Positions 1,850-2,580 of a stretch of DNA of 64,000 nucleotides are shown one piece after another. Within the stretch, counting starts at the first letter, position 1. Each line of letters opens with the position of its first letter. Source of the DNA: Pseudomonadota bacterium (GTDB lineage Bacteria > Pseudomonadota > Gammaproteobacteria > Ga0077536); contig JADJYF010000010.1 in the NCBI GenBank assembly GCA_016719885.1, positions 64,814-128,813 of the forward strand. Direction: 5' to 3'. Below the pieces are notes generated by a model. That model was not told the origin of the DNA. It made no database searches and worked only from the letters and a program-made list of their open reading frames with translations. Both the position numbers and the translations under genes were made by a program.

Positions 1850-2356
1850 ATGCAACTACGCGCCGACCTTCAACTCGCCACCGCCATCCGCGCGCTCACC
1901 GAAGTGGTGCTGCCGGCCGTCGATGCCGACAACGCGCTGGCCGTCGAACAAACCCAGGTCGTGATCGGCATGCTGCAGCTGATGGCGGCGCGGCTGCCGC
2001 TGCAGTACCGCTACGACTGCGATGAGTTGGCGCGCCTGCTCACACTGTGTCGAGCACTGCAGCCTTATGACGACGACGGCGGGCTGGCGGGCGCCACCCA
2101 CGCCGGCGCCGAGGTGCTGGCGCGCGCACGGGCCACGCCACAGGAGATCCTCGACGCCATACACGGCCTGCGTACGCTGAGCGGCGCGGTGGTGAGTAGC
2201 GCCTATCGCGATGGCGACGACGCGGCGCGCGCCGCGCTATCGGCGCTGGTGCTCACTCATGCCGATGAGCAGTTGCTGCGGGAACGCGCGTGGTTCGCGC
2301 CGCAGGGTTGGGAACTCGAGCCGGACGGTGTACCGCCGCTCGAGGATTTGGTGTAA
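1850..2356 (+). CDS. Hypothetical 168-aa protein, paralog of CDS 3409..3915
   Basis: Clean ORF directly after the kinase. The N-terminus LRADLQLATAIRALTEVVLPAVDADNALAVEQ aligns with LDLRLKSVLKALTDVILPALPADERMAREQ of the minus-strand paralog. The two are the same length (168 aa). Confidence 0.5.
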   Translation: MQLRADLQLATAIRALTEVVLPAVDADNALAVEQTQVVIGMLQLMAARLPLQYRYDCDELARLLTLCRALQPYDDDGGLAGATHAGAEVLARARATPQEILDAIHGLRTLSGAVVSSAYRDGDDAARAALSALVLTHADEQLLRERAWFAPQGWELEPDGVPPLEDLV

Positions 2357-2393
2357 GGGCGCTGCGCATGATCGACTCGCCCTTGCGGTATGA

Positions 2394-2460
2394 ATGTCAG
2401 GCTGAAGCCTGACCCACAATGAATACCCTCTCGACCGTGGGTCAGGCTTCAGCCTGACAT
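2394..2460. repeat. Nested palindromic REP-like element (family A): two 24-nt arms, each containing the hairpin GTCAGGCT-GA/TC-AGCCTGAC
   Basis: The arm atgtcaggctgaagcctgacccac and its exact reverse complement gtgggtcaggcttcagcctgacat are separated by 19 nt. It lies between convergent genes. A related copy is at 40964..41040. Confidence 0.6.
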
Positions 2461-2465
2461 CGGTT

Positions 2466-2580
2466 GGGGGGGGGGGGGGGGGGGGGGGGGGGGGGGGGGG
2501 GGGGGGGGGGGGGGGGGGGGGGGGGGGGGGGGGGGGGGGGGGGGGGGGGGGGGGGGGGGGGGGGGGGGGGGGGGGGGGGG
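2466..2580. repeat. Uninterrupted poly-G homopolymer (115 nt); probable sequencing/assembly artefact
   Basis: Direct reading of the sequence. The ORF-track poly-Gly and poly-Pro translations derive from it. Confidence 0.9.

Follow-up and report, generated by a model that had tools for sequence, protein, structure and literature searches.

A 115-nucleotide G run beside a REPIN-like repeat in a gammaproteobacterial contig is very probably filler from a contig join

Long homopolymers in sequence records have several described sources. Bacterial contingency loci carry phase-variable tracts of roughly 7 to 20 nt, which lie in coding sequence or promoters and vary among relatives. The poly(C) tract of cardioviruses and aphthoviruses is found in the 5' UTR of mammalian RNA viruses, where it has a known role; in encephalomyocarditis virus (EMCV) it reads C115UCUC3UC10. 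Scaffold gaps, conventionally written as 10 or 100 N, can separate contigs whose flanks are truly adjacent. Another source is the two-colour Illumina chemistry of NextSeq and NovaSeq instruments, on which cycles without signal give poly-G in read tails, a phenomenon that is documented for 3' read ends and that therefore shows up where contigs end (fastp; PMC6129281). Among bacterial repeats, REPINs consist of two inverted REP units separated by a short spacer and folding into one long hairpin (Bertels & Rainey 2011, PMC3116915; PMC3337134).

Here, we compare these systems with an intergenic spacer near the start of a 64,000-nt stretch of a gammaproteobacterial contig (the window). A first-pass annotation had described a hairpin (AAGGGCG…CGCCCTT), a nested palindrome, and 115 consecutive G residues between two convergent genes in this region, and all three are indeed present at the positions given (Table 1). 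The G run is uninterrupted and lies on the plus strand. Five bases (CGGTT) separate it from the end of the nested palindrome, and it is followed by real sequence on the same strand, TTGAATCC. The next-longest run of G or C in the 64-kb window is 5, and the base composition gives a computed expectation of about 8e-51 runs of this length. The window holds 0 N.

TABLE 1 Features of the spacer region and REP elements elsewhere in the window
Feature	Position in window	Strand	Remarks
168-aa protein, left convergent gene	1850..2356	+	APH-family phosphotransferase gene lies upstream; no Pfam hit
First hairpin	2352..2387		Core AAGGGCG 2355-2361 / CGCCCTT 2378-2384; 10-bp stem
REP doublet (REPIN-like), family A	2394..2460		Inverted 24-nt units 2394-2417 and 2437-2460; 19-nt spacer
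GGTTG, left copy	2462..2466	+	Left-flank match to reference stops here
115-nt G homopolymer	2466..2580	+	Absent from L001 and L002; judged non-biological filler at contig junction
117-nt excess (G115 + TT)	2466..2582	+	Deletion restores colinearity with reference assemblies
GGTTG, right copy	2579..2583	+	Right-flank match starts here; only TT 2581-2582 unambiguously duplicated
SDR, right convergent gene, 256 aa	2596..3366	-	PF13561 E = 5.9e-60; PF00106 E = 2.5e-50
REP doublet, family B (GTGCGAATKMATTCGCAC)	10315..10368		Units 10315/10351; -42.9 kcal/mol
REP doublet, family B (GTGCGAATKMATTCGCAC)	26008..26071		Units 26008/26054; -41.4 kcal/mol
Single REP unit, family A (GTCAGGCTGAAGCCTGAC)	41020..41037		Fold -16.8 kcal/mol, z = -4.2
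REP doublet, family B (GTGCGAATKMATTCGCAC)	49314..49387		Units 49314/49370; -53.9 kcal/mol

Once the filler is set aside, the true spacer between the convergent genes measures 122 nt and comprises a weak hairpin and the REP doublet. The surrounding genes form a mirror-image locus: each side, at 667-2356 (+) and 3412-5099 (-), has a phosphotransferase gene of the APH family (PF01636) and, following it, a gene for a 168-aa protein. The 168-aa proteins of the two sides are paralogous to each other (28% identity, E = 1e-11), and neither belongs to a Pfam family. This small protein seems to accompany these kinases as a conserved partner.

An exact look-up of the 168-aa protein of the left convergent gene returned three public contigs: L001, a 38.6-kb contig of JGI metagenome 3300056624; L002, from NCBI assembly GCA_009612975.1 (WBZP01020301.1); and L003, from the Logan assembly of SRR26424693. 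L001 and L002 are independent assemblies that cross the spacer without the G tract; they are about 99% identical to the window and not of the same strain, and the absence of the tract from them is short of strict proof for the source organism. Where the window has G115, both have GGTTG. Both read ...CTGACATCGGTTGAATCCAGACG... at the junction, with the G tract missing; CTGACATCGGTTGAATCC is the junction reading that they share, free of any G run, and GCCTGACATCGGTTGAATCCAGACG is their reading of the spacer, with flanks on both sides identical to those of the window.

Deletion of the 117-nt excess from the window leaves L002 as one gap-free match over its full 5285 nt (98.9%) and L001 as a single match of 4102 nt across the junction (99.0%). 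Apart from these 117 nt, window positions 1699-2780 are identical to both contigs. The matches of the left and right flanks overlap by the 5 nt GGTTG on the reference (L001 5613..5617), and the junction can accordingly be written as GGTTG-G112-GGTTG, in which only TT is unambiguously duplicated. Because of this overlap, the flanks must be genuine neighbours, and a join between unrelated contigs is ruled out. A flank overlap of 2-5 nt is also what is expected of abutting contig ends that share too few bases for a merge. Comparison with closely related genomes, one of the checks that the first-pass annotation had proposed, thus came down on the side of an artefact and supports its suggestion that the run arose in sequencing or scaffolding.

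We made one further observation on L001. Its SDR gene is called in two pieces (59 aa and 198 aa, L001:5630-6402), which implies that a frameshift or indel sets L001 apart from the window and L002. The split gene may be an assembly error or a pseudogene.

The same region was also recovered from more distant sources: three relatives from genome collections, annotated as Gammaproteobacteria MAGs (L004, L005, and L006; 76-85% nucleotide identity to the window), and a MEGAHIT contig (L007; 95% nucleotide identity). In L004, L005, and L006, the convergent gene pair is still adjacent. No G run longer than 6 is present in any of the loci fetched from this region (L001-L007). Exact-protein look-ups, a scan of genome contigs, a metagenome scan with a junction 20-mer, and PLSDB returned no contig bearing the G run; the 20-mer scan matched only the contig of L002 and an unrelated coding sequence, L009.

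Taken together, these comparisons make us highly confident that the 115 G are foreign to the genome of this organism and are filler from the joining of two abutting contig ends just past the repeat. A biological G run is very unlikely. The artefact could have started out as a G tail left by dark cycles or as a placeholder for a gap that was later turned into G.

The most likely route, which we favor at somewhat better than even, is a poly-G read tail from dark cycles. In the read at the end of the left contig, the final ~115 cycles would have been signal-free on a two-colour Illumina instrument. These cycles would have been called as G, giving the left contig a poly-G tail, and a scaffolding or gap-closing step would then have butted this tail onto the next contig, starting (GG)TTGAATCC. 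Such a butted join would leave the short TT/GGTTG duplication. Both the platform and the joining step are inferred. Like documented two-colour poly-G, the run is pure G, shorter than a read, and absent from independent assemblies; unlike it, the run is internal, with real sequence of the same strand on both sides, rather than at a contig end.

This difference bears on the two-colour explanation offered by the first-pass annotation. Its attribution of the run to an artefact stands, but a simple 3' tail leaves the same-strand sequence that follows the run unexplained. Documented dark-cycle poly-G is found at 3' read ends, and a de Bruijn walk of the type X -> G^k -> Y needs reads starting with G. 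Since 3'-tail artefacts supply no such reads, an extra joining or placeholder step must be assumed, and we rejected a plain walk through a poly-G node, which would need reads beginning with G. The further proposal that polymerase stalling at the palindrome possibly triggered the run is not supported. It fits the strands poorly, as reads meeting the palindrome head-on are from the minus strand and would give poly-C on the plus strand. Stalling was also rejected as a direct cause, as a temporary dark interval would substitute bases and not insert them.

The length of the run can be compared with poly-G stretches in IMG/VR, in which we scanned 2.9 million viral contigs for runs of at least 80 G. 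The scan found 24 such stretches, 20 of them at contig ends, and all but one of these 20 were 81-117 nt long. The 115 nt of the window run are thus typical of terminal poly-G tails in IMG/VR. A ceiling of 117 nt would be in keeping with 150-nt reads anchored by ~33 nt. Counting against a read tail, many of the contig-end tails in IMG/VR are noisy (GGGTGGGG), whereas the window run is perfectly pure.

Several of the IMG/VR runs lie inside contigs. In L020:8808-8903 (IMGVR_UViG_3300009868_000110), a 35-kb viral contig from a JGI metagenome, an internal poly-G run (G96-TT-G18-TT...) has coding-like sequence on both sides and is probably the same kind of artefact. Three very GC-rich contigs of 137-167 kb (66-78% GC), L022, L025 (IMGVR_UViG_2974616868_000001), and L031 (IMGVR_UViG_2974632003_000001), have G runs of 148-248 nt. 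These are internal in L022 and L025, where they sit within G-rich repeats, and lie 31 nt from the locus end in L031. We also considered L029 (IMGVR_UViG_638275981_000001; 7835 nt), in which an internal run of 115 C at 149-263 is followed by TCTCCCTC10. This contig is presumably the genome of the cardiovirus EMCV with its real poly(C) tract. Although the homopolymer length is the same, the tract belongs to the 5' UTR of a mammalian RNA virus; we rejected it as a relative of the window run and regard the equal length as coincidence.

A less likely but plausible route to the same filler is a scaffold gap of ~112-115 N, placed between contigs that overlap by 2-5 nt and turned into G by a program that packs bases into two bits. 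When computed for N, the common packing expressions (c>>1)&3 and (c&6)>>1 each yield G, and several assemblers probably use such an encoding. The locus resembles a scaffold gap in that the flanks are truly adjacent, the short overlap (GGTTG, 5 nt on the reference) was left unmerged, as is typical of a gap over a coverage hole, and removal of the filler restores the reference exactly. Conversion of N would also account directly for the purity of the run and for the real same-strand sequence on both sides, unlike a read-tail artefact, and it is consistent with the lack of any N in the window. In contrast to a scaffold gap, the filler is G and not N, and this route therefore needs the conversion, which is plausible for packing programs; it also assumes scaffolding of the source assembly or its handling by a program of this sort. 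Moreover, 115 is not a conventional gap length, and it falls in the empirical range of dark-cycle tails. The read tail remains our preferred route, this gap conversion is a tentative second, and artefacts of other kinds take up most of the remaining probability.

Two further readings would require either that the G run be real or that the join be false. In the first, which we consider highly improbable, ~112-115 G would have been inserted recently, and in this strain only, at a break beside the REP doublet, with a short duplication flanking them. In its favor, the run starts 5 nt beyond the REP doublet, REP-associated transposases cut close to REP hairpins, a direct repeat of 2-5 nt flanks the run, the comparison assemblies are not of the identical strain, and long natural homopolymers such as the C115 of L029 do exist. 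One version, in which a break near the doublet (for example, from cleavage by a REP-associated transposase) was healed by the non-templated addition of more than 100 G, is more improbable still, and we know of no bacterial mechanism for adding more than 100 identical bases. Against a real tract, it is missing from both near-identical assemblies, and G runs reach at most 6 in the three distant relatives. The site itself is GGTTG and offers no precursor G tract that replication slippage could expand, other G runs in the 64 kb being no longer than 5. As the run lies where two genes meet with their 3' ends, it is not obvious what a change in its length would affect, and a run of 115 nt would be hard to sequence or assemble faithfully from short reads. 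If true, the tract would be strain specific, hypermutable, and G-quadruplex forming, with a short flanking duplication. The alternative offered by the first-pass annotation, a real G-quadruplex-forming or phase-variable tract, is likewise very unlikely. The run shares with contingency loci only that it is a G homopolymer in bacterial sequence; it is far longer, sits between the stop codons of convergent genes rather than in a coding or promoter position, and is absent from L001 and L002 instead of varying in length among related strains. In position, length, and presence in relatives, it departs from phase-variable tracts and matches known classes of assembly artefact. As for a chimera, in which unrelated contigs or contigs of different organisms would have been glued together through a shared poly-G node, we give it next to no weight. 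When two-colour reads are assembled without trimming, poly-G k-mers would become hubs of the graph, and the mismatches of L002 all lie to the right of the junction, from window position 2911 on. However, the flanks are adjacent and colinear in L001, L002, and the distant L004-L006, and this conserved synteny essentially refutes a chimera; identity to both references extends ~770 nt to the left (from 1699) and ~200 nt to the right (to 2780), and the GC content is the same on both sides. A check for a chimera of strains found no step change at the junction in the positions of mismatches to L001 and L002; contigs from two strains of one species may have been joined there.

The nested palindrome next to the filler is a feature of the genome itself, and L001 and L002 carry it unchanged. 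Complementarity between the 24-nt arms is 100%, and within each arm lies a smaller palindrome with an 8-bp stem, GTCAGGCT..AGCCTGAC, with two nucleotides (nn) between. The predicted fold has an energy of -50.4 kcal/mol on the plus strand (z = -8.7) and -55.1 kcal/mol on the minus strand (z = -11.0). The palindromic unit is short and extragenic, and two inverted units with a short spacer make up one long hairpin. Units of this family (family A) occur three times, at two sites, in the 64 kb, compared with 0.08 expected by chance. By its architecture and repetition, we class the nested palindrome as a REPIN-like REP doublet, a known type of repeat that the first-pass annotation had not recognised in it. 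A second family (family B) shows the same architecture at three sites, and the genome represented by the window thus carries at least two REPIN-like families.

Like REPINs, the family-A doublet is an extragenic pair of inverted palindromic units with a short spacer, and its unit recurs elsewhere in the window. It differs in that only three family-A units are visible in 64 kb and in that a search of the window using an approximate E. coli RayT probe matched no RAYT transposase gene. RAYTs are usually single-copy genes, and one may lie outside the window.

The repeat also coincides with the ends of other assemblies. Of the four short-read contigs that reach the spacer, two stop within the repeat. 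L003 (99.94% identity to the window) breaks off 4 nt into the spacer of the doublet (window position 2420), and L007 does so within its own doublet. Assemblies thus do break at this repeat, and the position of the break in L003 suggests that there are more copies of family A.

The first hairpin is of a different kind. It overlaps the stop codon (TAA) of the 168-aa open reading frame, and its predicted fold is modest (-16.9 kcal/mol, z = -2.05), being equalled by 6 of 200 shuffled sequences. It is missing in the relative L004, and no T-run follows it. Because this hairpin is weakly folded and not conserved in L004, we attach no function to it. Scans of 2100..2900 found no promoters and, on either strand, no terminator-like sites, that is, no stem-loop followed by a T/U run. 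With permissive cut-offs, Rfam searches of 1500..3500 yielded nothing beyond microRNA-like chance matches to the palindrome, far below gathering scores, and a tRNA scan found no tRNA genes.

The main value of these results lies in quality control, as the record contains 117 spurious bases. Positions 2466..2582 should be removed or masked ahead of any analysis of repeats, G-quadruplexes, or phase variation, and poly-G artefacts can occur within contigs as well as at their ends.

The spacer itself holds a smaller point of interest. A doublet of family A occupies it in the window (2394-2460), L001, and L002, whereas in L004 (6495-6585, 84% nucleotide identity) and L007 (1481-1546, 95%) the same intergenic spacer holds a doublet of family B; in L005 and L006, there is almost no spacer between the convergent genes. 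The same spacer is thus occupied by different REP families in different lineages or strains. REP elements can stabilise the 3' ends of mRNAs or attenuate read-through transcription. By analogy, the doublet hairpin in this spacer would most likely shield the two convergent transcripts from exonucleases at their 3' ends or attenuate read-through. The REP doublet is a repeat of an already-known kind, and the biology underlying this locus is ordinary.
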